Origin: Escherichia coli
GTDB taxonomy: Bacteria > Pseudomonadota > Gammaproteobacteria > Enterobacterales > Enterobacteriaceae
Length of the DNA: 64,000 bases
Assembly (NCBI RefSeq): GCF_003019035.1
Contig: NZ_CP027447.1
Direction: 5' to 3' (one strand)
Shown here: positions 11,882 to 55,366 of the stretch, piece after piece
How the letters are laid out: each line of letters opens with the position of its first letter
Position numbering within the stretch: the stretch's first letter is position 1
The notes under the pieces: generated by a model
What the model was told of the DNA's origin: nothing
What the model saw: only the letters and a program-made list of their open reading frames with translations
Databases searched by the model: none
Made by a program: the position numbers and the translations under genes

Positions 11882-12538
11882 ATGCCATCTACACGCTATC
11901 AAAAAATCAATGCCCATCACTATCGCCATATATGGGCCGTTGGTGATATTCATGGTGACTATCAATTATTACAATCCCGCTTACATCAACTCTCTTTTTG
12001 CCCTGAAACCGACTTACTTATTTCTGTCGGCGATAATATTGATCGTGGGCCGGAGAGTCTTAACGTACTACGCCTGTTAAACCAGCCCTGGTTTACATCG
12101 GTTAAAGGCAACCATGAAGCGATGGCGCTTGATGCATTCGAAACTGGCGATGGAAATATGTGGCTTGCCAGCGGTGGTGACTGGTTTTTCGATTTAAATG
12201 ATTCAGAGCAACAAGAGGCAATAAATCTGTTGCTGAAATTTCATCGCCTTCCACATATTATTGAAATCACTAACGACATAATAAAATATGTCATCGCACA
12301 TGCAGATTATCCGGAGAATGAATATCTCTTTGGCAAAGAAATAGCGGAGAGCGAATTACTCTGGCCTGTTGATCGTGTGCAGAAATCACTTAATAGCGAA
12401 TTACAAAAAATAAACGGTGCCGACTTCTTTATATTTGGTCATATGATGTTTGATAACACTCAGACGTTCGCTAACCAGATTTATATTGATACCGGATCGC
12501 CGAAAAGCGGGCGGCTGTCATTTTATAAAATAAAGTAG
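11882..12538 (+). CDS. pphB: Serine/threonine protein phosphatase 2 (PPP family, 218 aa)
   Basis: GDIHG and GNHE metallophosphatase motifs, 218 aa. Confidence 0.9.
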   Translation: MPSTRYQKINAHHYRHIWAVGDIHGDYQLLQSRLHQLSFCPETDLLISVGDNIDRGPESLNVLRLLNQPWFTSVKGNHEAMALDAFETGDGNMWLASGGDWFFDLNDSEQQEAINLLLKFHRLPHIIEITNDIIKYVIAHADYPENEYLFGKEIAESELLWPVDRVQKSLNSELQKINGADFFIFGHMMFDNTQTFANQIYIDTGSPKSGRLSFYKIK

Positions 12539-12563
12539 TCTCATGCTTCTTCTGTGAAGCATG
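12539..12563. terminator. Bidirectional hairpin between convergent pphB and ygbI (TCATGCTTC...GAAGCATGA)
   Basis: 9-bp inverted repeat immediately after pphB stop. Confidence 0.4.
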
Positions 12564-12588
12564 AGTAACCCGGTGTTATTGCAGGCCA

Positions 12589-13386
12589 TTATTCATTTTT
12601 CGCTACCAGCAAAGAGAGATCCTGCTTCGCCAGCGCGCGACTGGCACTCTCCGGCAAACCGTCGTCTGTAATAATCTGATCAAACTCGCTTAATGGTAAC
12701 GCCAGCCATGTCGCCACCTGACCATATTTCGTCGCATCACAGACCAAAACTCGCTGGCGGCTGGCACTGGCAATCGCCCGTTTCACCGTGACTTTATCTT
12801 CCGCTGGCGTAGAAATCCCCCGCACACTCCATGACGATGCAGAAATAAAAGCCTGATCAATCATCAGGCTGCGCAGCATGGTCGCAGCGGCTTCCCCGAC
12901 ACAGGAACGGTTTTCCCGACACACTGCACCGCCAGTGTGAATAATTGTGCAATTACTGTTGTCGAGCAAGTAGTCCGCAATAACGAAATCGTTTGTGACC
13001 ACAGTCAGTGACTCCATGTGAATCAGATGCTGTGCTATCGCTAGCGTGGTCGTTCCCGCATCCAGATAGATACAACTTCCCGGCTGAACAAGACTTGCCG
13101 CCAGCTTGCCAATAGCCGCTTTTTGCGTCATTGCCAGCGCAGTTTTTACCTGATGAGAAGGTTCATGCGCCACGCGTCCCGGAGACTGGACGCCTCCGGA
13201 CACCAGCACAACGGCTCCCTGCTGCTCCAGTTTTTGTAAATCCCGACGAATGGTCATATGTGACACATTCATTCTGTCCGTTAGTTCAGCAATACTGACA
13301 ATGCCTTTTTCAGCTACCATCTCAAGGATGATTTGGCGACGCTCTACGGGTATCAACTTTTGCTCCTTCCTTTGTCCTGCTGACAT
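12589..13386 (-). CDS. ygbI: DeoR-family transcriptional regulator of the adjacent tetronate operon
   Basis: N-terminal HTH and C-terminal DeoR sugar-binding fold; start uncertain (reference protein is ~10 aa shorter). Confidence 0.85.
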   Translation of the reverse strand: MSAGQRKEQKLIPVERRQIILEMVAEKGIVSIAELTDRMNVSHMTIRRDLQKLEQQGAVVLVSGGVQSPGRVAHEPSHQVKTALAMTQKAAIGKLAASLVQPGSCIYLDAGTTTLAIAQHLIHMESLTVVTNDFVIADYLLDNSNCTIIHTGGAVCRENRSCVGEAAATMLRSLMIDQAFISASSWSVRGISTPAEDKVTVKRAIASASRQRVLVCDATKYGQVATWLALPLSEFDQIITDDGLPESASRALAKQDLSLLVAKNE

Positions 13387-13464
13387 TCTACGCTATTTGC
13401 CTGCGAAACGTGCGCGGCGCAACTAACGCTTAGTTCACATAAAATAACACACAATGTTAATTTT

Positions 13465-13480
13465 TGTGAATCAGCTCACC
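13465..13480. promoter_or_regulatory. CRP-like site TGTGA-N6-TCACC in ygbI/ltnD divergent promoter
   Basis: Match to TGTGA-N6-TCACA half sites read in sequence. Confidence 0.35.
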
Positions 13481-13551
13481 ATATCGTTATCTTCCAGCGC
13501 TTATATTCACAATATCAAACAAAATATCACTTAAATTAACAAGGAGAACAG

Positions 13552-14460
13552 ATGAAAACGGGATCTGAGTTTCATGTCGGTATCGTTGGCTTAGGGTCAA
13601 TGGGAATGGGAGCAGCACTGTCATGTGTCCGCGCAGGTCTTTCTACCTGGGGCGCAGACCTGAACAGCAATGCCTGCGCTACGTTGAAAGAGGCAGGTGC
13701 TTGCGGGGTTTCTGATAACGCCGCGACGTTTGCCGAAAAACTGGACGCTCTGCTGGTGCTGGTGGTCAATGCGGCCCAGGTTAAACAGGTGCTGTTTGGT
13801 GAAACAGGCGTTACACAACATCTGAAACCCGGTACGGCAGTAATGGTTTCTTCCACTATCGCTAGTGCTGATGCGCAAGAAATTGCTACCGCTCTGGCTG
13901 GATTCGATCTGGAAATGCTGGATGCGCCAGTTTCTGGTGGTGCAGTAAAAGCCGCTAACGGTGAAATGACTGTCATGGCCTCCGGTAGCGATATTGCCTT
14001 TGAACGACTGGCACCCGTGCTGGAAGCCGTTGCCGGAAAAGTTTATCGCATAGGTGCAGAACCGGGACCAGGTTCGACCGTAAAAATTATTCACCAGTTG
14101 TTAGCGGGCGTACATATTGCTGCCGGAGCCGAAGCGATGGCACTTGCAGCCCGTGCGGGGATCCCGCTGGATGTGATGTATGACGTCGTGACCAATGCCG
14201 CCGGAAATTCCTGGATGTTCGAAAACCGGATGCGTCATGTGGTGGATGGCGATTACACCCCGCATTCAGCCGTCGATATTTTTGTTAAGGATCTTGGTCT
14301 GGTTGCCGATACAGCCAAAGCCCTGCACTTCCCGCTGCCATTGGCCTCAACAGCATTGAATATGTTCACCAGCGCCAGTAACGCGGGTTACGGGAAAGAA
14401 GACGATAGCGCAGTTATCAAGATTTTCTCTGGCATCACTCTACCGGGAGCGAAATCATGA
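13552..14460 (+). CDS. ltnD: L-threonate dehydrogenase (3-hydroxyisobutyrate dehydrogenase family, 302 aa)
   Basis: N-terminal Rossmann GxxGxxG (VGIVGLGSMGMG); corresponds to ygbJ. Confidence 0.88.
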   Translation: MKTGSEFHVGIVGLGSMGMGAALSCVRAGLSTWGADLNSNACATLKEAGACGVSDNAATFAEKLDALLVLVVNAAQVKQVLFGETGVTQHLKPGTAVMVSSTIASADAQEIATALAGFDLEMLDAPVSGGAVKAANGEMTVMASGSDIAFERLAPVLEAVAGKVYRIGAEPGPGSTVKIIHQLLAGVHIAAGAEAMALAARAGIPLDVMYDVVTNAAGNSWMFENRMRHVVDGDYTPHSAVDIFVKDLGLVADTAKALHFPLPLASTALNMFTSASNAGYGKEDDSAVIKIFSGITLPGAKS

Positions 14461-15719
14461 TCAAGATTGGCGTTATCGCCGATGATTTTACCGGCGCGAC
14501 GGATATCGCCAGTTTTCTGGTGGAAAACGGTCTACCAACGGTACAAATTAACGGTGTTCCAACAGGTAAAATGCCGGAAGCAATCGACGCACTGGTGATC
14601 AGCCTGAAAACGCGTTCCTGTCCGGTGGTTGAAGCCACACAGCAATCGCTGGCGGCTCTGAGCTGGTTGCAACAGCAAGGTTGCAAACAGATCTATTTCA
14701 AATACTGCTCTACTTTCGACAGTACGGCGAAAGGTAATATCGGCCCGGTTACCGATGCATTAATGGATGCTCTCGACACGCCGTTTACGGTCTTCTCTCC
14801 GGCCCTGCCGGTCAACGGACGTACGGTTTATCAGGGGTATTTGTTCGTAATGAATCAACTGCTGGCCGAATCCGGGATGCGCCATCACCCGGTAAATCCC
14901 ATGACCGACAGCTATCTTCCTCGTCTGGTTGAAGCGCAATCCACAGGGCGCTGCGGCGTCGTTTCGGCACATGTTTTCGAACAAGGTGTGGATGCCGTTC
15001 GTCAAGAGCTGGCTCGCTTACAGCAAGAGGGCTACCGCTACGCGGTGCTTGATGCGCTGACCGAATACCATCTGGAAATTCAGGGAGAAGCCTTGCGCGA
15101 TGCCCCACTGGTAACGGGCGGTTCTGGTCTGGCGATTGGCCTTGCCCGGCAGTGGGCGCAAGAAAACGGTAACCAGGCTCGCAAAGCAGGGCATCCGCTC
15201 GCTGGGCGCGGCGTAGTGCTCTCCGGTTCATGCTCTCAAATGACCAACCGCCAGGTAGCACATTACCGTCAAATTGCACCAGCCCGTGAAGTTGATGTGG
15301 CACGCTGCCTCTCAATTGAAACTCTGGCCGCTTATGCACACGAACTGGCAGAGTGGGTTCTGGGCCAGGAAAGTGTACTTGCTCCACTGGTTTTTGCCAC
15401 CGCAAGCACTGACGCATTGGCAGCAATTCAACAGCAATACGGTGCACAAAAAGCCAGTCAGGCAGTAGAAACACTGTTTTCTCAACTAGCGGCGCGGTTA
15501 GCAGCGGAAGGCGTGACACGCTTTATTGTCGCAGGCGGTGAGACCTCCGGCGTAGTCACACAGAGCCTGGGAATAAAAGGGTTTCATATTGGCCCAACCA
15601 TTTCCCCTGGCGTGCCGTGGGTAAACGCACTGGATAAGCCTGTCTCACTCGCCCTTAAATCTGGCAACTTCGGTGATGAAGCCTTTTTTTCACGAGCCCA
15701 AAGAGAGTTTTTATCATGA
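14457..15719 (+). CDS. otnK: 3-oxo-tetronate kinase (DUF1537 family, 420 aa)
   Basis: 420 aa, overlapping start/stop with neighbours; corresponds to ygbK. Confidence 0.85.
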   Translation: MIKIGVIADDFTGATDIASFLVENGLPTVQINGVPTGKMPEAIDALVISLKTRSCPVVEATQQSLAALSWLQQQGCKQIYFKYCSTFDSTAKGNIGPVTDALMDALDTPFTVFSPALPVNGRTVYQGYLFVMNQLLAESGMRHHPVNPMTDSYLPRLVEAQSTGRCGVVSAHVFEQGVDAVRQELARLQQEGYRYAVLDALTEYHLEIQGEALRDAPLVTGGSGLAIGLARQWAQENGNQARKAGHPLAGRGVVLSGSCSQMTNRQVAHYRQIAPAREVDVARCLSIETLAAYAHELAEWVLGQESVLAPLVFATASTDALAAIQQQYGAQKASQAVETLFSQLAARLAAEGVTRFIVAGGETSGVVTQSLGIKGFHIGPTISPGVPWVNALDKPVSLALKSGNFGDEAFFSRAQREFLS

Positions 15720-16354
15720 GCGATTTCGCAAAAGTAGAGCAGTCTTTGCGAGAGGAGATGACGCGGATTGCCAGTTCATTCTTTCAGCGCGGCTATGCAA
15801 CCGGTTCGGCTGGCAATCTGTCGCTGCTTTTACCTGACGGGAATTTACTGGCGACACCGACAGGTTCATGCCTGGGCAATCTCGATCCGCAGCGGCTTTC
15901 CAAAGTCGCCGCGGATGGCGAATGGTTAAGTGGTGACAAACCCTCGAAAGAGGTGCTCTTTCATCTGGCGCTGTATCGCAACAATCCGCGCTGTAAAGCG
16001 GTGGTGCATTTGCACAGCACATGGTCGACGGCGCTTTCCTGCCTGCAAGGGCTGGACAGCAGCAACGTTATTCGTCCGTTCACACCATACGTGGTGATGC
16101 GGATGGGAAATATCCCGCTGGTGCCTTATTACCGACCGGGCGATAAACGCATCGCACAGGATCTGGCGGAACTGGCAGCAGACAATCAGGCTTTTTTACT
16201 GGCAAATCATGGCCCAGTGGTTTGCGGTGAAAGCCTGCAAGAAGCCGCCAACAATATGGAAGAGCTGGAGGAAACGGCAAAGCTGATTTTTATTCTCGGT
16301 GACCGCCCGATCCGTTATCTGACCGCAGGTGAAATTGCGGAATTAAGGAGTTAA
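15716..16354 (+). CDS. otnC: 3-oxo-tetronate 4-phosphate decarboxylase (class II aldolase/adducin family, 212 aa)
   Basis: Class II aldolase-like sequence; corresponds to ygbL. Confidence 0.85.
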
Positions 16355-16358
16355 TGCA

Positions 16359-17135
16359 ATGCCTCGTTTTGCAGCTAATTTATCCATGATGTTCACCGAA
16401 GTGCCTTTTATTGAACGCTTCGCCGCAGCGCGAAAAGCCGGGTTCGATGCTGTGGAATTTCTGTTTCCCTATAACTACTCCACCCTGCAAATCCAAAAGC
16501 AACTGGAGCAAAACCATCTGACACTGGCGCTGTTCAATACCGCTCCCGGAGATATTAATGCGGGGGAATGGGGATTATCCGCCCTTCCCGGACGTGAGCA
16601 CGAAGCACACGCAGACATCGACCTGGCACTGGAATATGCATTGGCGCTCAATTGTGAACAAGTCCATGTGATGGCAGGCGTCGTGCCCGCTGGCGAAGAT
16701 GCTGAACGGTACAGGGCAGTATTTATCGATAATCTCCGCTACGCTGCCGACCGCTTTGCGCCACACGGCAAGCGAATATTAGTTGAAGCACTCAGCCCCG
16801 GCGTTAAGCCTCATTATCTCTTCTCCAGCCAGTATCAGGCACTGGCTATTGTTGAAGAAGTTGCGCGAGATAACGTGTTTATTCAACTAGATACTTTTCA
16901 TGCGCAAAAAGTAGATGGCAACCTGACGCATTTAATCCGCGACTACGCCGGGAAATATGCGCACGTACAAATTGCCGGACTACCTGATCGACATGAACCG
17001 GACGATGGAGAAATCAACTATCCGTGGCTGTTCCGCCTGTTCGATGAGGTGGGATATCAGGGCTGGATCGGTTGTGAATATAAACCTCGTGGCCTCACCG
17101 AAGAAGGGCTTGGCTGGTTTGACGCCTGGCGCTAA
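16359..17135 (+). CDS. otnI: 2-oxo-tetronate isomerase (hydroxypyruvate isomerase/TIM-barrel family, 258 aa)
   Basis: Xylose isomerase-like TIM barrel; corresponds to ygbM. Confidence 0.85.
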
Positions 17136-17223
17136 TTCGTTAAATCCCTAATTACAACGTACCCATACATCCCCCCATCTACGGATGGGGTAGGTTAACT
17201 ATAACTTTCAGACAGGGTTTCCC

Positions 17224-18588
17224 ATGTCCACAATTACATTGTTATGCATTGCGTTAACTGGCGTAATCATGCTGTTGCTGCTGGTCATCAAGGCAAAGGT
17301 ACAACCATTCGTTGCTCTGCTCCTCGTCAGCCTGTTAGTCGCACTTGCGGCGGGTATACCGGCGGGCGAAGTGGGTAAAGTGATGATCGCCGGGATGGGC
17401 GGTGTGCTTGGTTCCGTCACTATTATTATTGGTCTGGGCGCTATGCTGGGGCGTATGATCGAACACTCTGGTGGTGCAGAGTCACTGGCTAATTATTTCA
17501 GTCGCAAGTTAGGTGACAAACGAACTATCGCTGCACTGACTCTGGCAGCGTTCTTCCTCGGTATCCCCGTCTTCTTTGATGTCGGCTTTATTATTCTTGC
17601 GCCAATCATTTACGGTTTTGCCAAGGTTGCCAAAATATCGCCACTCAAATTTGGCCTGCCTGTCGCTGGGATCATGCTCACTGTTCATGTGGCGGTACCG
17701 CCGCATCCAGGCCCTGTCGCCGCAGCGGGGTTACTCCACGCAGACATCGGCTGGCTAACCATCATCGGTATTGCGATTTCTATTCCCGTAGGGATTGTTG
17801 GCTACTTTGCAGCGAAAATAATCAATAAGCGCCAATATGCAATGTCGGTGGAAGTACTGGAACAGATGCAACTGGCTCCGACCAGTGAGGAAGGCGCGAC
17901 AAAATTAAGCGATAAAATAAATCCACCGGGCGTCGCGCTGGTCACCTCGCTAATTGTTATTCCTATCGCGATTATCATGGCGGGTACGGTTTCCGCAACA
18001 CTGATGCCGCCTTCGCATCCCCTGCTTGGTACGCTACAGCTGATCGGCTCACCAATGGTAGCTCTAATGATTGCGCTGGTGCTGGCATTCTGGTTATTGG
18101 CTTTACGTCGCGGCTGGAGCTTACAACACACCAGCGACATTATGGGCTCAGCCCTTCCCACCGCGGCGGTAGTGATTTTGGTTACTGGTGCTGGAGGGGT
18201 ATTTGGCAAAGTGCTGGTGGAATCGGGCGTCGGCAAAGCCCTTGCCAACATGCTACAAATGATTGACCTGCCTCTGTTACCAGCCGCATTTATTATTTCA
18301 CTGGCGCTGCGTGCATCGCAGGGGTCAGCAACCGTAGCAATCCTGACAACCGGCGGGTTACTCTCAGAAGCGGTGATGGGATTGAATCCGATTCAGTGCG
18401 TATTGGTGACGCTGGCAGCCTGCTTTGGTGGGCTTGGCGCGTCACATATTAATGACTCAGGGTTCTGGATTGTGACCAAATATCTGGGGTTGTCGGTAGC
18501 AGACGGTCTGAAAACCTGGACAGTGTTAACGACCATTCTCGGTTTTACCGGATTCTTAATTACCTGGTGCGTATGGGCGGTAATTTGA
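17224..18588 (+). CDS. ygbN: GntP-family acid-sugar permease (454 aa)
   Basis: Highly hydrophobic 454-aa ORF with GntP-like topology. Confidence 0.88.
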   Translation: MSTITLLCIALTGVIMLLLLVIKAKVQPFVALLLVSLLVALAAGIPAGEVGKVMIAGMGGVLGSVTIIIGLGAMLGRMIEHSGGAESLANYFSRKLGDKRTIAALTLAAFFLGIPVFFDVGFIILAPIIYGFAKVAKISPLKFGLPVAGIMLTVHVAVPPHPGPVAAAGLLHADIGWLTIIGIAISIPVGIVGYFAAKIINKRQYAMSVEVLEQMQLAPTSEEGATKLSDKINPPGVALVTSLIVIPIAIIMAGTVSATLMPPSHPLLGTLQLIGSPMVALMIALVLAFWLLALRRGWSLQHTSDIMGSALPTAAVVILVTGAGGVFGKVLVESGVGKALANMLQMIDLPLLPAAFIISLALRASQGSATVAILTTGGLLSEAVMGLNPIQCVLVTLAACFGGLGASHINDSGFWIVTKYLGLSVADGLKTWTVLTTILGFTGFLITWCVWAVI

Positions 18589-18595
18589 CCTTAAT

Positions 18596-18626
18596 AAAAA
18601 GGTCCGATGGGCATCGGACCTTTTAT
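18596..18626. terminator. Bidirectional rho-independent terminator between convergent ygbN and the decarboxylase small-subunit gene
   Basis: AAAAGGTCCGATG..CATCGGACCTTTT inverted repeat flanked by A/T runs. Confidence 0.55.
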
Positions 18627-18863
18627 TTAGCGCTTACCTTCCGCCAGCAGCGGCGGGATGCTCGGCACCATCGGCGCGTCATCAATATCTTTCTGCGTCA
18701 TGCGGAACGCTTCGGGATAATGTTCGCGGCTGGTGCGGCGCAGCGGTTCGGTATCGCGCCAGGTATAGAGGCAATGCTGGCACTGGTAGACCGTCCAGAC
18801 ATCTTTTACCGGCGATTTCGCCATCACTTCAATCTGTTCATCAGCACAACGTGGACAAATCAT
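18627..18863 (-). CDS. Small subunit of UbiD/UbiX-type aromatic acid decarboxylase (EcdD/KpdD/BsdD-like, 78 aa), zinc-ribbon CPRC...CQHC
   Basis: 78-aa ORF with two Cys pairs, AAGGAG RBS, immediately downstream of UbiD-like gene. Confidence 0.75.
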   Translation of the reverse strand: MICPRCADEQIEVMAKSPVKDVWTVYQCQHCLYTWRDTEPLRRTSREHYPEAFRMTQKDIDDAPMVPSIPPLLAEGKR

Positions 18864-18873
18864 CTTGTTCTCC

Positions 18874-20325
18874 TTATTGACGTGCGGCCAGCATAGCGGT
18901 CAGTTTTTCAGCCCAGGCTTTGGTTTCCGGTAAATCCACCACCGGCTGACTGTAGTGACCGCGGTTGTCCGGGGCGACAGGCGTGGTGGCGTCGATAATC
19001 AGCTTGTCGGTGATCCCCGCCGGGCTTGAGCCTGGGTCGAGTTCCAGCACGGACATATTCGGCAACTGCACCAAATCCCCTGCCGGGTTCACTTTCGAGG
19101 AGAGCGCCCACATCACCTGCGGCAGGTTGAACGGATCAACGTCTTCATCGACCATAATCACCATCTTCACATAGCCCAGACCGTGCGGCGTGGTCATCGC
19201 ACGGAGGCCCACCGCGCGGGCAAAGCCACCGTAGCGTTTTTTGGTGGAGATAATCGCCAGCAGGCCGTGGGTGTACATGGCGTTTACCGCCTGCACTTCC
19301 GGGAACTCGGCTTTCAGTTGCTGATACAGCGGCACGCAGGTGGCTGGCCCCATCAGGTAGTCGATTTCCGTCCACGGCATCCCGAGATAGAGCGATTCAA
19401 AAATGGGTTTGCTGCGATAAGAGACGTTATCGATGCGCACCACGGTCATGTTGCGCCCGCCGGAGTAGTGCCCGGTAAACTCACCGAACGGCCCTTCGAT
19501 TTCACGTTTACGGCTTTCGATGACACCTTCGAGGATCACTTCTGAACCCCACGGCACATCAAAACCAGTCAGCGGGGCGGTGGCGATCGGGTACGGGCTT
19601 TCACGCAGCGCGCCTGCCATTTCGTACTCGGACTGATCATATTTCAGCGGCGTGGCCCCCATCAGCGTGATGATCGGATCGTTACCGAGGGTGATCGCAA
19701 TCGGCAGATCTTCACCGCGCTCTTCCGCTTTATGCAGATGCAGGGCGATATCGTGCATCGGCACCGGTTGCAGGCCGAGCTTACGTTTGCCCTTCACTTC
19801 CATGCGGTAGATACCGACGTTCTGCTTGCCGAAGTTATCCGGATCAAGCGGATCGCGGGAAACCACGCACGCTTTGTCGAGATAGAAACCGCCATCGCCA
19901 TCGTTTAAACGAAACAGCGGCAGGATATCGAACAGGTTGATCTCGTCTCCATCGACGGTGTTCTGCGCCCAGGCTGGATTGGCTCGGCGTTCCGGGGCAA
20001 TCGGGAAGTTGTCCCAGCGGCGGATAAACTCATCGATCTGTTTTTTAACCGGGGTATTTGGCGGCAGGCCGAGGGAAATCGCGTGGTTCTGCCAGGAACC
20101 GATGGTGTTCATCGCCACGCGGGCATCGGTAAAGCCGCGAATATTATCAAACCACAGCGCTGGCGCGCCGTCGCCGATACGCCCGGTGGCGTTGGCTGCG
20201 GCTGCCAGATCCGGTTCTGCGTTCACCTCTTCGCTGATTTTCAGCAATTGCCCATGGTCGTCGAGCGCCCTACCAGGCCATCGGCGTAACCGGCACGGAT
20301 ACCGGCGAGCGTTTTCATACTGCAC
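18874..20325 (-). CDS. UbiD-family (prenyl-FMN dependent) decarboxylase, EcdC/KpdC-like; N-terminal ~18 codons are non-homologous read-through from a deletion junction, start codon uncertain
   Basis: ~465 residues of UbiD-family sequence; ORF begins at GTG 20325 inside the upstream UbiX-like fragment. Confidence 0.7.
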   Translation of the reverse strand: MQYENARRYPCRLRRWPGRALDDHGQLLKISEEVNAEPDLAAAANATGRIGDGAPALWFDNIRGFTDARVAMNTIGSWQNHAISLGLPPNTPVKKQIDEFIRRWDNFPIAPERRANPAWAQNTVDGDEINLFDILPLFRLNDGDGGFYLDKACVVSRDPLDPDNFGKQNVGIYRMEVKGKRKLGLQPVPMHDIALHLHKAEERGEDLPIAITLGNDPIITLMGATPLKYDQSEYEMAGALRESPYPIATAPLTGFDVPWGSEVILEGVIESRKREIEGPFGEFTGHYSGGRNMTVVRIDNVSYRSKPIFESLYLGMPWTEIDYLMGPATCVPLYQQLKAEFPEVQAVNAMYTHGLLAIISTKKRYGGFARAVGLRAMTTPHGLGYVKMVIMVDEDVDPFNLPQVMWALSSKVNPAGDLVQLPNMSVLELDPGSSPAGITDKLIIDATTPVAPDNRGHYSQPVVDLPETKAWAEKLTAMLAARQ

Positions 20326-20579
20326 GGAATAACGATCATGCCGTCGGTACGAAAGGAACCTGAGGAGATGGTCGCCGCCTGATCCGCCGAGTTATGGCTG
20401 AAGTCTGCGAGGGCAGCAACATCGCGAGCGCTGTAAGGCGTTTCCAGTTCAATGGTGGTTTTCGCCCACGTCGACATCACCAGATGAGTCTCGACATTCG
20501 GCATCTCCCGCAGCGCTTGCAGTAATGCCACACCAAGAGGCGCACCGGTAGCCCCTGTCATCCCGACGATCAGTTTCAT
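20241..20579 (-). pseudogene. Truncated UbiX/Pad1-family flavin prenyltransferase (EcdB/KpdB-like): only N-terminal ~105 residues remain, then frameshifted tail and stop
   Basis: Translation matches UbiX through ...DGLVGR then diverges (STTMGNC*); full UbiX is ~190 aa; 3' end overlaps UbiD-like ORF. Confidence 0.75.
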
Positions 20580-20596
20580 TGCTTACTCTCTTAATT

Positions 20597-20610
20597 GTTC
20601 GTATACGAAC
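20597..20610. promoter_or_regulatory. Perfect 14-bp palindrome GTTCGTATACGAAC in divergent promoter region; candidate MarR-family operator
   Basis: Read directly; lies between divergently oriented decarboxylase genes and MarR-family gene. Confidence 0.35.
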
Positions 20611-20725
20611 GTTATTATTAACATACTCCTTCATTTCCACAGCGGCAAGGATTGAAAAGTAACAACATCTTCTTCGTCACTGAAAAACCGCTATGATAGC
20701 GACAGAGAATTAGCCCGGAGTTTAC

Positions 20726-21133
20726 ATGGCGTTACGAAATAAAGCGTTCCATCAGTTACGACAGCTTTTTCAGCAGCATACGGCCCGCTGGCAGCACGAG
20801 TTACCTGACCTGACCAAACCACAGTACGCGGTGATGCGCGCCATTGCTGATAAGCCTGGTATCGAACAGGTGGCACTGATAGAAGCAGCAGTCAGCACCA
20901 AAGCAACGCTGGCAGAAATGTTGGCAAGAATGGAAAATCGTGGCTTAGTCAGACGTGAACATGACGCCGCTGATAAGCGGCGACGCTTTGTCTGGCTGAC
21001 TGCCGAAGGAGAAAAGGTACTTGCTGCGGCGATACCGATTGGCGACAGTGTGGATGAGGAATTTTTGGGGCGTTTGAGTGGAGAAGAGCAGGAGCTGTTT
21101 ATGCAGCTGGTGCGCAAGATGATGAGCAAATAG
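20726..21133 (+). CDS. MarR/SlyA-family transcriptional regulator (135 aa)
   Basis: Winged-helix MarR-like sequence, divergent from decarboxylase genes. Confidence 0.8.
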   Translation: MALRNKAFHQLRQLFQQHTARWQHELPDLTKPQYAVMRAIADKPGIEQVALIEAAVSTKATLAEMLARMENRGLVRREHDAADKRRRFVWLTAEGEKVLAAAIPIGDSVDEEFLGRLSGEEQELFMQLVRKMMSK

Positions 21134-21207
21134 GATGTTGATTGCCGGATGGGACGCTGACGTGTCTTATCCAGGCGACAAAACACACCGACTCCCAAAT
21201 AAAAGAA

Positions 21208-21240
21208 AAAGGCCAGCCTCGCTTGAGACTGGCCTTTCTG
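21208..21240 (-). terminator. rpoS rho-independent terminator (AAAGGCCAG...CTGGCCTTT hairpin followed by T-run on minus strand)
   Basis: Inverted repeat with adjacent A-run on plus strand just downstream of rpoS stop. Confidence 0.55.
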
Positions 21241-21252
21241 ACAGATGCTTAC

Positions 21253-22245
21253 TTATTCGCGGAACAGCGCTTCGATATTCAGCCCCTGCGTTTGCAGGAT
21301 TTCGCGCAAACGGCGCAGGCCTTCAACCTGAATCTGGCGAACACGTTCACGGGTGAGGCCAATTTCACGACCTACATCTTCCAGTGTTGCCGCTTCGTAC
21401 CCCAGCAAACCGAATCGACGTGCCAGTACTTCACGCTGTTTGGCGTTCAGCTCGAACAGCCATTTGACGATGCTCTGCTTCATATCGTCATCTTGCGTGG
21501 TATCTTCCGGACCGTTCTCTTTTTCATCGGCCAGGATGTCCAGCAACGCTTTTTCGGAATCACCACCCAGCGGGGTGTCTACCGAGGTAATGCGCTCGTT
21601 AAGACGAAGCATACGGCTGACGTCATCAACTGGCTTATCCAGTTGCTCTGCGATCTCTTCCGCACTTGGTTCATGGTCCAGTTTATGGGACAACTCGCGT
21701 GCGGTTCGCAGGTAAACGTTCAGCTCCTTTACGATGTGAATCGGCAAACGAATAGTACGGGTTTGGTTCATAATCGCCCGTTCGATCGTCTGGCGAATCC
21801 ACCAGGTTGCGTATGTTGAGAAGCGGAAACCACGTTCCGGGTCAAACTTCTCTACCGCGCGGATCAGCCCCAGGTTGCCCTCTTCGATAAGATCCAGCAA
21901 AGCCAGACCACGATTGCCATAACGGCGGGCAATTTTTACCACCAGGCGCAAGTTACTCTCGATCATCCGGCGGCGAGAGGCAACATCTCCACGCAGTGCG
22001 CGACGCGCAAAATAAACTTCTTCTTCGGCCGTTAACAGTGGTGAATAACCAATCTCACCAAGGTAAAGCTGAGTCGCGTCCAGCACACGCTGTGTGGCTC
22101 CCTGCGATAACAGTTCCTCTTCGGCCAAATCGTTATCACTGGGTTCCTCTTCTACTAAGGCCTTTTCGTCAAAAACCTCAACTCCGTTCTCATCAAATTC
22201 CGCATCTTCATTTAAATCATGAACTTTCAGCGTATTCTGACTCAT
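21253..22245 (-). CDS. rpoS: RNA polymerase sigma factor RpoS (sigma-38, 330 aa)
   Basis: Sigma-70 family regions 2-4; start [14 protein letters not shown]; codon 33 is GAG (Glu), no amber. Confidence 0.97.
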
Positions 22246-55120: not shown

Positions 55121-55366
55121 TCATTATCTCTGGTAACTGGATATAATTTTTAGCATAAGGGCATAAGCGCTAATGTGATCGTAATCACAGTGTGATATTC
55201 GTATTATCAAATAATTTTAAAAAGCAGAAGCGTGACTACTCTCACACAACACCACTGCTTTCCATGTTATTTCTTATTGCAATTACTAGAGACCTGAGAA
55301 AAGTAATCCACCTGAAAGGGCGGCTTACTTTTCTCTTTTTTTGTCTATTACAAATGGGAATACGAT

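Follow-up and report, generated by a model that had tools for sequence, protein, structure and literature searches.

A candidate YgbI operator and a conserved CRP site in the control region of the L-threonate operon of Escherichia coli

The segment at positions 12589-18588 of the 64-kb stretch of DNA analysed here (the window) is the ygbI/ltnD-otnK-otnC-otnI(ygbM)-ygbN locus of E. coli for L-threonate breakdown, with its regulator transcribed divergently. The whole 6-kb stretch is 100% identical to the chromosome of E. coli SCU-301, where it is already annotated as ygbI, ltnD, otnK, otnC, ygbM and ygbN, and 4576 of the 5426 complete genomes of the species carry at least 80% of it. This is ordinary core or near-core E. 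coli sequence with a correctly recognizable acid-sugar operon. The locus, the repressor and the CRP site were all in the literature beforehand, and the preliminary description of this DNA was correct but ordinary. The increment lies in the control region, where we find a specific sequence that is a candidate for the YgbI operator across phyla, together with comparative support for a CRP site known in vitro being functional and in a class II position. As a whole, the locus is very probably best explained as an L-threonate pathway encoded in a single operon, with YgbI operators O1-O4 and class II activation by CRP.

The genes were assigned to families using NCBIfam equivalog profiles at their curated cut-offs, together with Pfam domains. 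On the minus strand, ygbI (12589-13356) encodes a DeoR-family repressor of 255 amino acids that matches NF040890 with 482 bits (cut-off 400) over residues 11-263 of the 265-residue longest open reading frame, has the Pfam domains HTH_DeoR and DeoRC, and is 99.6% identical to the YgbI of K-12. The remaining genes are on the plus strand. The first, ltnD (ygbJ, 13552-14460), encodes L-threonate dehydrogenase (two Pfam domains, NAD_binding_2 plus NAD_binding_11); it scores 472 bits against NF043037 (cut-off 350) over profile positions 3-296 of 297, and the runner-up family, 2-hydroxy-3-oxopropionate reductase, reaches 198 bits, under that family's own cut-off. It is followed by otnK (ygbK, 14457-15719), the DUF1537 3-oxo-tetronate kinase of 420 amino acids (SBD_N and NBD_C; NF043035, 598 bits, cut-off 350), which aligns end to end with its full-length relatives in PDB 3DQQ, 1YZY and 5DMH. 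The product of otnC (ygbL, 15716-16354) is a decarboxylase with the class II aldolase fold (Aldolase_II; NF043034, 335 bits, cut-off 250); models of fuculose-phosphate aldolase give at most 104 bits, under their cut-offs. The 2-oxo-tetronate isomerase encoded by otnI (ygbM, 16359-17135) is a xylose-isomerase-like TIM barrel (AP_endonuc_2; NF043033, 395 bits, cut-off 325) that is essentially identical to PDB 1K77, 'ygbM' of E. coli (E = 2e-179). Lastly, ygbN (17224-18588) encodes a GntP-family permease, presumed to import an acid sugar (NF007332, 827 bits, cut-off 524; GntP_permease, 515 bits). Thus annotation, NCBIfam and Pfam agree on the gene identities, gene order, pathway assignment and divergent DeoR regulator of the preliminary description. 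Its remark that the genes appear intact also holds, because each of the six products covers its equivalog profile end to end with a score above the cut-off.

What does the operon degrade? From equivalog-level homology to the pathway of Zhang et al. we infer that it serves L-threonate breakdown in E. coli. That four-step route, LtnD-OtnI-OtnK-OtnC, was reported in 2016 (PNAS 113:E4161) and is summarised in PMC12540250; all four of the enzyme families given in that summary are present here, in a cluster that also includes a transporter and a regulator. L-threonate would be imported by YgbN and oxidized by LtnD to 2-oxo-tetronate, which OtnI would convert to 3-oxo-tetronate; this would be phosphorylated by OtnK, and OtnC would decarboxylate the phosphorylated product to dihydroxyacetone phosphate and CO2. 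L-threonate is a breakdown product of ascorbate. We rejected the three-step 2-OtnK/2-OtnC bypass, since its decarboxylase is described in PMC12540250 as having an F_bP_aldolase domain, in contrast to the Aldolase_II domain of OtnC here.

D-erythronate had been proposed as a second substrate. The sole dehydrogenase of the locus matches LtnD, with no DenD-type or second dehydrogenase alongside it, and between pphB and the decarboxylase genes no unexplained open reading frame of at least 80 amino acids is found beyond the six named genes. Zhang and colleagues are said to have described entry of D-erythronate either by a DenD dehydrogenase or by a D-erythronate kinase plus PdxA2. Thus the L-threonate entry stands, with LtnD present, while the D-erythronate branch is unsupported because LtnD is the only dehydrogenase in the locus.

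For this locus, growth phenotypes have been reported on just two substrates, L-tartrate (PMC8464067) and meso-tartrate, and solely after loss of ygbI. A K-12 ygbI deletion acquires growth on L-tartrate, evolution on meso-tartrate selected ygbI mutations twice, and neither an enzyme assay nor a growth test on L-threonate in E. coli was found in the literature searched. The true substrate might on these grounds be another C4 acid such as tartrate, with the L-threonate names an over-annotation by homology. Yet all four enzymes pass equivalog models built for the tetronate pathway, and the four-enzyme set is syntenic in several phyla. Tartrate does not support growth of wild-type K-12 and is therefore not an inducer of the operon, and the authors of the tartrate studies themselves call the activity promiscuous. 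Moreover, the experiments were done in K-12, whose OtnK is truncated. We therefore consider another C4 acid such as tartrate highly unlikely as the true substrate.

The five genes ltnD to ygbN form one transcription unit that extends from the 195-bp spacer to a terminator hairpin at 18597-18630 on the plus strand. There are 4-bp overlaps at ltnD/otnK and otnK/otnC, and a strong terminator is found after ygbN only. The hairpin, identified by folding, has a 12-bp stem and a 4-nt loop followed by UUUUAUUU; its free energy is -17.3 kcal/mol (z = -4.65), none of 200 shuffled sequences was equally stable, and it sits between ygbN and a convergent decarboxylase gene. On deletion of ygbI in K-12 the log2 fold changes fall smoothly along the operon, at 5.55, 5.15, 5.09, 4.62 and 3.95 (PMC8464067). 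The same gene set, order and divergence are found in nine other taxa that extend from the Enterobacterales to the Succinivibrionaceae and Vibrionaceae, namely E. albertii, Entomohabitans, Serratia, Pluralibacter, Pantoea, Anaerobiospirillum, two other Succinivibrionaceae and Enterovibrio, although the last keeps the divergent order without ygbN. Rearranged versions of the set occur in Alphaproteobacteria. The dehydrogenase, isomerase, kinase and decarboxylase genes are thus kept together as a conserved unit.

The longest open reading frame of ygbI on the minus strand runs over 12589-13386 (265 amino acids), and 13386 had been taken as its start. This requires correction: RefSeq and the published transcription start place it at 13356. 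The gene was re-annotated as 10 amino acids shorter in PMC2760140, and the start mapped for its transcript is downstream of 13386. The ygbI promoter spans 13377-13392 on the minus strand, with the transcription start near 13377; its published -10 element CGTAGAAT is the reverse complement of 13385-13392. Table 2 of PMC2760140 lists 'atagCGTAGAATgtca', with the start 21 nt upstream of the corrected ygbI ATG.

In K-12 YgbI binds the ygbI-ygbJ spacer in vivo at a single ChIP-exo site, and RNA-seq of a ygbI deletion shows ygbJKLMN raised 15- to 47-fold (PMC8464067). YgbI on the spacer would thus keep the operon off, occupancy and derepression both having been shown in K-12. There is an independent YgbI i-modulon, and laboratory evolution has yielded mutations in ygbI. 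The suggestion that the regulator binds near the repeats of the spacer is borne out to the extent that ChIP-exo places K-12 YgbI on that spacer (PMC8464067). Because there is only the single site, ChIP-exo could not define the YgbI operator.

The spacer contains three copies of the hexamer TTCACA/TGTGAA against 0.09 expected, the densest cluster in the window. These hexamers open a longer motif of 16 bp, TTCACA-N5-TAACA, forming its first half; four copies of the motif were found as matches in the spacer. O1 (TTCACATAAAATAACA, 13434-13449, plus strand) forms an inverted pair with O2 (TTCACAAAAATTAACA, 13455-13470, minus strand). O3 (TTCACAATATCAAACA, 13506-13521, plus strand) overlaps the predicted -10 element and start point of ltnD, and O4 (ATCACTTAAATTAACA, 13526-13541, plus strand), which immediately precedes the AAGGAG ribosome site (13541-13546), is conserved better than any other block of the spacer. 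Allowing one mismatch or fewer, the window has three matches, all of them in the spacer, where about 1.1 would be expected window-wide.

How general is the motif? It occurs three or four times in most of the ygbI-ltnD spacers examined, is also present ahead of otn operons in other phyla, and is enriched about 50-fold in the ygbI-ltnD spacers of ten taxa; with up to two mismatches there are 33 copies in 2.8 kb of orthologous spacers, compared with 0.22 per kb elsewhere. Its order, orientation and spacing are preserved in E. albertii and Entomohabitans. At loci of Aureimonas, Planctomycetaceae and Enterobacter sp. almost all matches fall within about 300 bp upstream of ltnD or otnK, and in the high-G+C Aureimonas the motif gives the only matches in 13-kb loci. 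Thus TTCACA-N5-TAACA is likely to be the YgbI operator, judged from this enrichment. YgbI would recognise the four 16-bp sites, with O3 and O4 covering the -10 element and start of ltnD and the inverted pair O1/O2 upstream. The hexamer repeats had been read as possible CRP or DeoR-type sites. Motif enrichment favours the second reading, as candidate operators for YgbI; we rejected the first, as extra CRP half-sites, since the repeats belong to the 16-bp copies.

The published ChIP-exo coordinates could be taken to indicate a different operator. Supplementary file 5 of PMC8464067 gives the YgbI peak as 2859304-2859334, numbers that two other sites in the same file show to refer to NC_000913.2; carried over by means of the K-12 annotation and alignment, the peak maps to 13404-13434 in the window, where it abuts O1 and leaves O2-O4 uncovered. 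This segment is G+C rich and contains the palindrome TGCGC-G-GCGCA at 13411-13421. It might be the true operator, leaving the TTCACA-N5-TAACA repeats to serve H-NS, promoter elements or similar. H-NS is listed for the spacer, which is 38% G+C compared with 52% for the window, so that chance A+T-rich matches are favoured there. Against this, neither the segment nor its palindrome is conserved outside Escherichia, while, wherever there is a ygbI homologue, copies of the 16-bp motif are found upstream of the otn operon, Aureimonas included. The ChIP-exo authors further state that their site overlaps the ygbJ promoter (PMC8464067), which fits O3/O4 better than 13404-13434. An operator in the G+C-rich segment is thus improbable, and we retain the TTCACA-N5-TAACA copies as the candidate sites.

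The CRP site TGTGAatcagcTCACC (TGTGA-N6-TCACC) spans 13465-13480, centred at 13472.5, and matches nine of the ten half-site bases of the consensus TGTGA-N6-TCACA. Its core, TGTGA-N6-TCAC, has four occurrences in the 64-kb window, where 0.48 would be expected, and none of 100 shuffles reaches four. Its earlier assignment as a CRP site is upheld by experiment, as the K-12 allele is bound by CRP in vitro with an estimated Kd of 8.4 nM (PMC12871828, Table 1, a 2026 Footprint-seq preprint); that allele has identical half-sites, its two differences from the window being one base in the spacer and one in the flank. The half-sites are also conserved. TGTGA and xCxC are invariant in an alignment of seven Enterobacterales sequences, and the half-sites are kept in Pantoea, in which O2 has a decayed TAACA half.

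From the conserved predicted -10 hexamer TATATT (13502-13507, plus strand), found by reading the sequence and its alignment, the ltnD transcript would start near 13514. The centre of the CRP site would therefore lie at -41.5, giving the class II geometry in which CRP would act as an activator. The same distance from site to -10 element is found in Anaerobiospirillum (TATGATCTAATTCACA ... TATAAT). An alternative prediction for the ygbJ promoter, TTCACA-16-GTTAAT, would put the CRP site at about +4. O2 overlaps the left CRP half-site, which suggests that YgbI and CRP may compete, repressor against activator. Expression would require cAMP-CRP and, in addition, a pathway intermediate that lifts repression by YgbI.

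The same overlap invites a more trivial reading, in which the CRP sequence is a by-product of O2 and CRP binds it in vitro with no regulatory role. The left half-site lies inside O2, which ends in TGTGAA, and given O2, chance need supply only TCAC at the right spacing; the papers searched yielded no in vivo CRP effect on the operon. However, the estimated affinity places the K-12 site among the 77 tightest regions of the genome (PMC12871828), and six genera of Enterobacterales, Pantoea among them, share the right half-site ([TG]C[AG]C) and its spacing. The -10 box likewise stays at a conserved distance, including in Anaerobiospirillum. A by-product is accordingly an unlikely origin for the site, and we favour a functional CRP site.

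The deo, glp, srl and aga operons of E. coli are sugar or sugar-acid operons under a DeoR-family repressor and cAMP-CRP. The present locus resembles them in several respects. Like their repressors, YgbI has an HTH at its N terminus and a DeoRC domain as sensor; the CRP site would be near the -35 position; and several candidate operators are spread over the divergent control region. What sets it apart from those systems is the candidate operator sequence, TTCACA-N5-TAACA, which is particular to YgbI homologues.

The K-12 locus (ygbI/ygbJKLMN, b2735-b2740) has the same genes, order and length of spacer, four positions differ from the window in the 231 bp of control region that were aligned, and its proteins are 99.0-99.6% identical to those of the window, with the exception of OtnK. 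K-12 lacks one T (window position 15608), a 1-bp deletion in otnK; as a consequence its YgbK ends at 388 amino acids and lacks the C-terminal motif that is invariant in the family, and there is a gap of 91 bp ahead of ygbL. The window strain has the intact protein of 420 amino acids with the motif LALKSGNFG..FF, which is absent only in K-12. The downstream hydroxyarylic acid decarboxylase genes of the window strain are also absent from K-12. That TTCACA-N5-TAACA is a YgbI operator in competition with CRP, and in addition that the otnK lesion leaves K-12 with a damaged pathway, is a joint proposal that we advance tentatively, at somewhat less than an even chance. With otnK truncated in K-12, tests of L-threonate use or of operon structure call for a strain in which the gene is intact. 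If the deletion does disable OtnK, the pathway studied in the K-12 literature is a damaged one, which would cover both the 'ygbJK'/'ygbLM' operon split and the tartrate-only phenotypes, and natural E. coli like the window strain would be competent users of L-threonate.

The six-gene tetronate locus (12589-18588) is confirmed. RefSeq names its genes ygbI (DNA-binding repressor), ltnD, otnK, otnC, ygbM (otnI) and ygbN, the ORF list holds the same six, and every product matches an NCBIfam equivalog model end to end with a score above the curated cut-off. The scores are 482 bits for YgbI (cut-off 400; Pfam HTH_DeoR and DeoRC), 472 for LtnD (350; NAD_binding_2 plus NAD_binding_11), 598 for OtnK (350; SBD_N and NBD_C), 335 for OtnC (250; Aldolase_II), 395 for OtnI (16359-17135; 325; AP_endonuc_2) and 827 for YgbN (524; GntP_permease). 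The preliminary description was correct in its gene order and family assignments, and in calling the genes intact. Structures have been solved for E. coli YgbM itself (PDB 1K77) and for full-length relatives of OtnK (PDB 3DQQ, 1YZY and 5DMH). RefSeq labels ygbM 'HPr family phosphocarrier protein', a name that comes from NCBIfam NF007441 and is carried on the listed E. coli genomes. For a TIM-barrel isomerase this is plainly a misnomer; the product scores above the cut-off of the 2-oxo-tetronate isomerase model as well, and it is the protein of PDB 1K77. An Rfam scan of 12000-19500 at E <= 1 gave no match, and nothing in that interval suggested a riboswitch or small RNA.

How general is the locus? 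The chromosome of E. coli SCU-301 is 100% identical to it. Of 5426 complete E. coli genomes, 4576 contain 80% or more of the locus and 824 gave no match at the sensitivity of megablast; in one genome a copy lies on a plasmid. It is flanked by mutS and pphB on one side, and on the other by genes for hydroxyarylic acid decarboxylase, by a MarR gene and by rpoS. The genes for decarboxylase subunits D, C and B and the MarR-family gene lie at ~18627-21400, between ygbN and rpoS, whereas in K-12 these genes are absent and rpoS directly follows ygbN. The interval presumably belongs to the known mutS-rpoS variable region. The same divergent layout is also found in E. albertii, Entomohabitans, Serratia, Pluralibacter, Pantoea, Anaerobiospirillum and two other Succinivibrionaceae, and in Enterovibrio without ygbN. 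The homologue scan, which relied on exact peptide words, recovered only 27 loci, so that the spacers of Salmonella, Klebsiella and Citrobacter fall outside the comparison.

Homology points to a function of the E. coli locus in L-threonate breakdown. We draw the details of the pathway from NCBIfam names and the outline given in a secondary source (PMC12540250, citing Zhang et al. 2016), according to which LtnD converts L-threonate to 2-oxo-tetronate, OtnI converts this to 3-oxo-tetronate, OtnK phosphorylates the latter and OtnC carries out the last step, yielding dihydroxyacetone phosphate. The locus encodes exactly this set of enzymes plus a GntP-type permease. There is no second dehydrogenase in the locus, which therefore supports entry from L-threonate only, and the D-erythronate branch that had also been proposed is not supported. 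The sole published growth phenotypes for the locus are on tartrates, following loss of ygbI (PMC8464067 among the sources).

The 195-bp spacer between ygbI and ltnD (13357-13551) contains the sequence TGTGA-N6-TCACC at 13465-13480, earlier put forward as a putative CRP site. A 2026 preprint records the K-12 allele, taTGTGAatcagaTCACCata, among its 'novel' CRP sites, assigned to the ygbI-ygbJ interval and having an estimated Kd of 8.4 nM (PMC12871828); the window has the same half-sites, with one base changed in the site's spacer and one in its flank. Binding of CRP in vitro is thus established. The core pattern is ~eightfold over-represented in the 64-kb window. Two further TGTGA-N6-TCAC matches lie 58 bp apart at 55174-55189 and 55232-55246; the former is a perfect palindromic-type site, TGTGATTACGATCACA, identical in sequence to the 'novel' ygcW/yqcE site of the Footprint-seq table (estimated Kd 1.7 nM, PMC12871828). 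Seven Enterobacterales spacers, when aligned, show no variation in TGTGA or in the xCxC of the ltnD site's right half. A TATATT conserved at 13502-13507 points to a transcription start at ~13514, which would place the centre of the CRP site at -41.5, and the distance from the site to the -10 box is the same in Anaerobiospirillum. We infer, with good comparative support, that CRP would act here as a class II activator.

The TTCACA/TGTGAA hexamers in the same spacer had been suggested as possible CRP and DeoR-type operator sites. They form the first half of the 16-bp motif TTCACA-N5-TAACA, of which there are four copies: O1 (13434-13449, plus strand), O2 (13455-13470, minus strand), which overlaps the left CRP half-site, O3 (13506-13521, plus) and O4 (13526-13541, plus). 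Allowing at most one mismatch, the 64-kb window has three matches, all inside the spacer. Motif density is 11.6 per kb in ten orthologous spacers against 0.22 per kb in the remainder of the same loci, and order and spacing are kept in closer relatives. In Aureimonas, Planctomycetaceae and an Enterobacter species, where ygbI homologues occur in other gene arrangements, nearly all motif matches in the locus are found no more than ~300 bp upstream of either ltnD or otnK. Its co-occurrence with ygbI homologues marks the motif as the strongest candidate YgbI operator. O3 and O4 overlap the predicted -10 element and start point, in agreement with the published overlap of YgbI binding and the ygbJ promoter (PMC8464067). 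The ChIP-exo interval of that study maps to 13404-13434, a G+C-rich segment that is not conserved outside Escherichia; it touches O1 and misses O2-O4. Its numbering is that of NC_000913.2: with NC_000913.3 the site would fall inside mutS, and two other sites in the file make sense only in NC_000913.2.

The accepted ygbI start at 13356 gives 255 amino acids, and transcription has been mapped to start 21 nt upstream of it, behind the -10 element CGTAGAAT (PMC2760140). The longest ORF (265 amino acids) begins at 13386, upstream of that transcription start. The literature also lists the spacer for H-NS, for binding of RNA polymerase holoenzyme in vitro and for a weak FlhDC SELEX peak, and the reported abundance of YgbI is a mere 2-6 copies per cell.

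The five genes from ltnD to ygbN are best read as a single operon. Four-base-pair overlaps join ltnD to otnK and otnK to otnC, and deletion of ygbI in K-12 raises ygbJ by a log2 value of 5.55, ygbK by 5.15, ygbL by 5.09, ygbM by 4.62 and ygbN by 3.95 (PMC8464067). The only convincing terminator is a hairpin 3′ of ygbN (-17.3 kcal/mol, z = -4.65). A CCCCATC/GATGGGG hairpin at 17173-17190, within the 88 bp that separate otnI from ygbN, falls where derepression drops slightly at ygbN; we rejected it as a terminator, its stability being no better than that of shuffles (z = -1.15). A generic consensus scan for promoters and terminators found no more sites than in shuffles and failed to pick up either the published ygbI promoter or the ygbN terminator, and was therefore not taken as evidence.

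K-12 databases divide the genes into 'ygbJK' and 'ygbLM' operons because of a 91-bp gap between ygbK and ygbL, which exists only because of a frameshift in K-12 ygbK. MG1655 lacks one T at the position matching 15608 in otnK, and its YgbK is therefore 388 rather than 420 amino acids long. It is without the C-terminal GVPW...LALKSGNFG..FF, a segment conserved in all nine other aligned sequences, from E. albertii to Alpha- and Betaproteobacteria. The exact K-12 allele occurs in 371 of the 4580 genomes having the segment, and among the matches listed these are mostly laboratory K-12 derivatives. The lesion leaves the verdict on the locus unchanged.

Subject to minor corrections, our analysis supports the interpretation of the preliminary description. 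Locus, repressor and CRP site have all been described before, and so are already known; the additions are modest, namely a candidate operator motif, support from comparison for a class II CRP promoter, and the K-12 otnK frameshift, which matters when K-12 data serve to judge the pathway.
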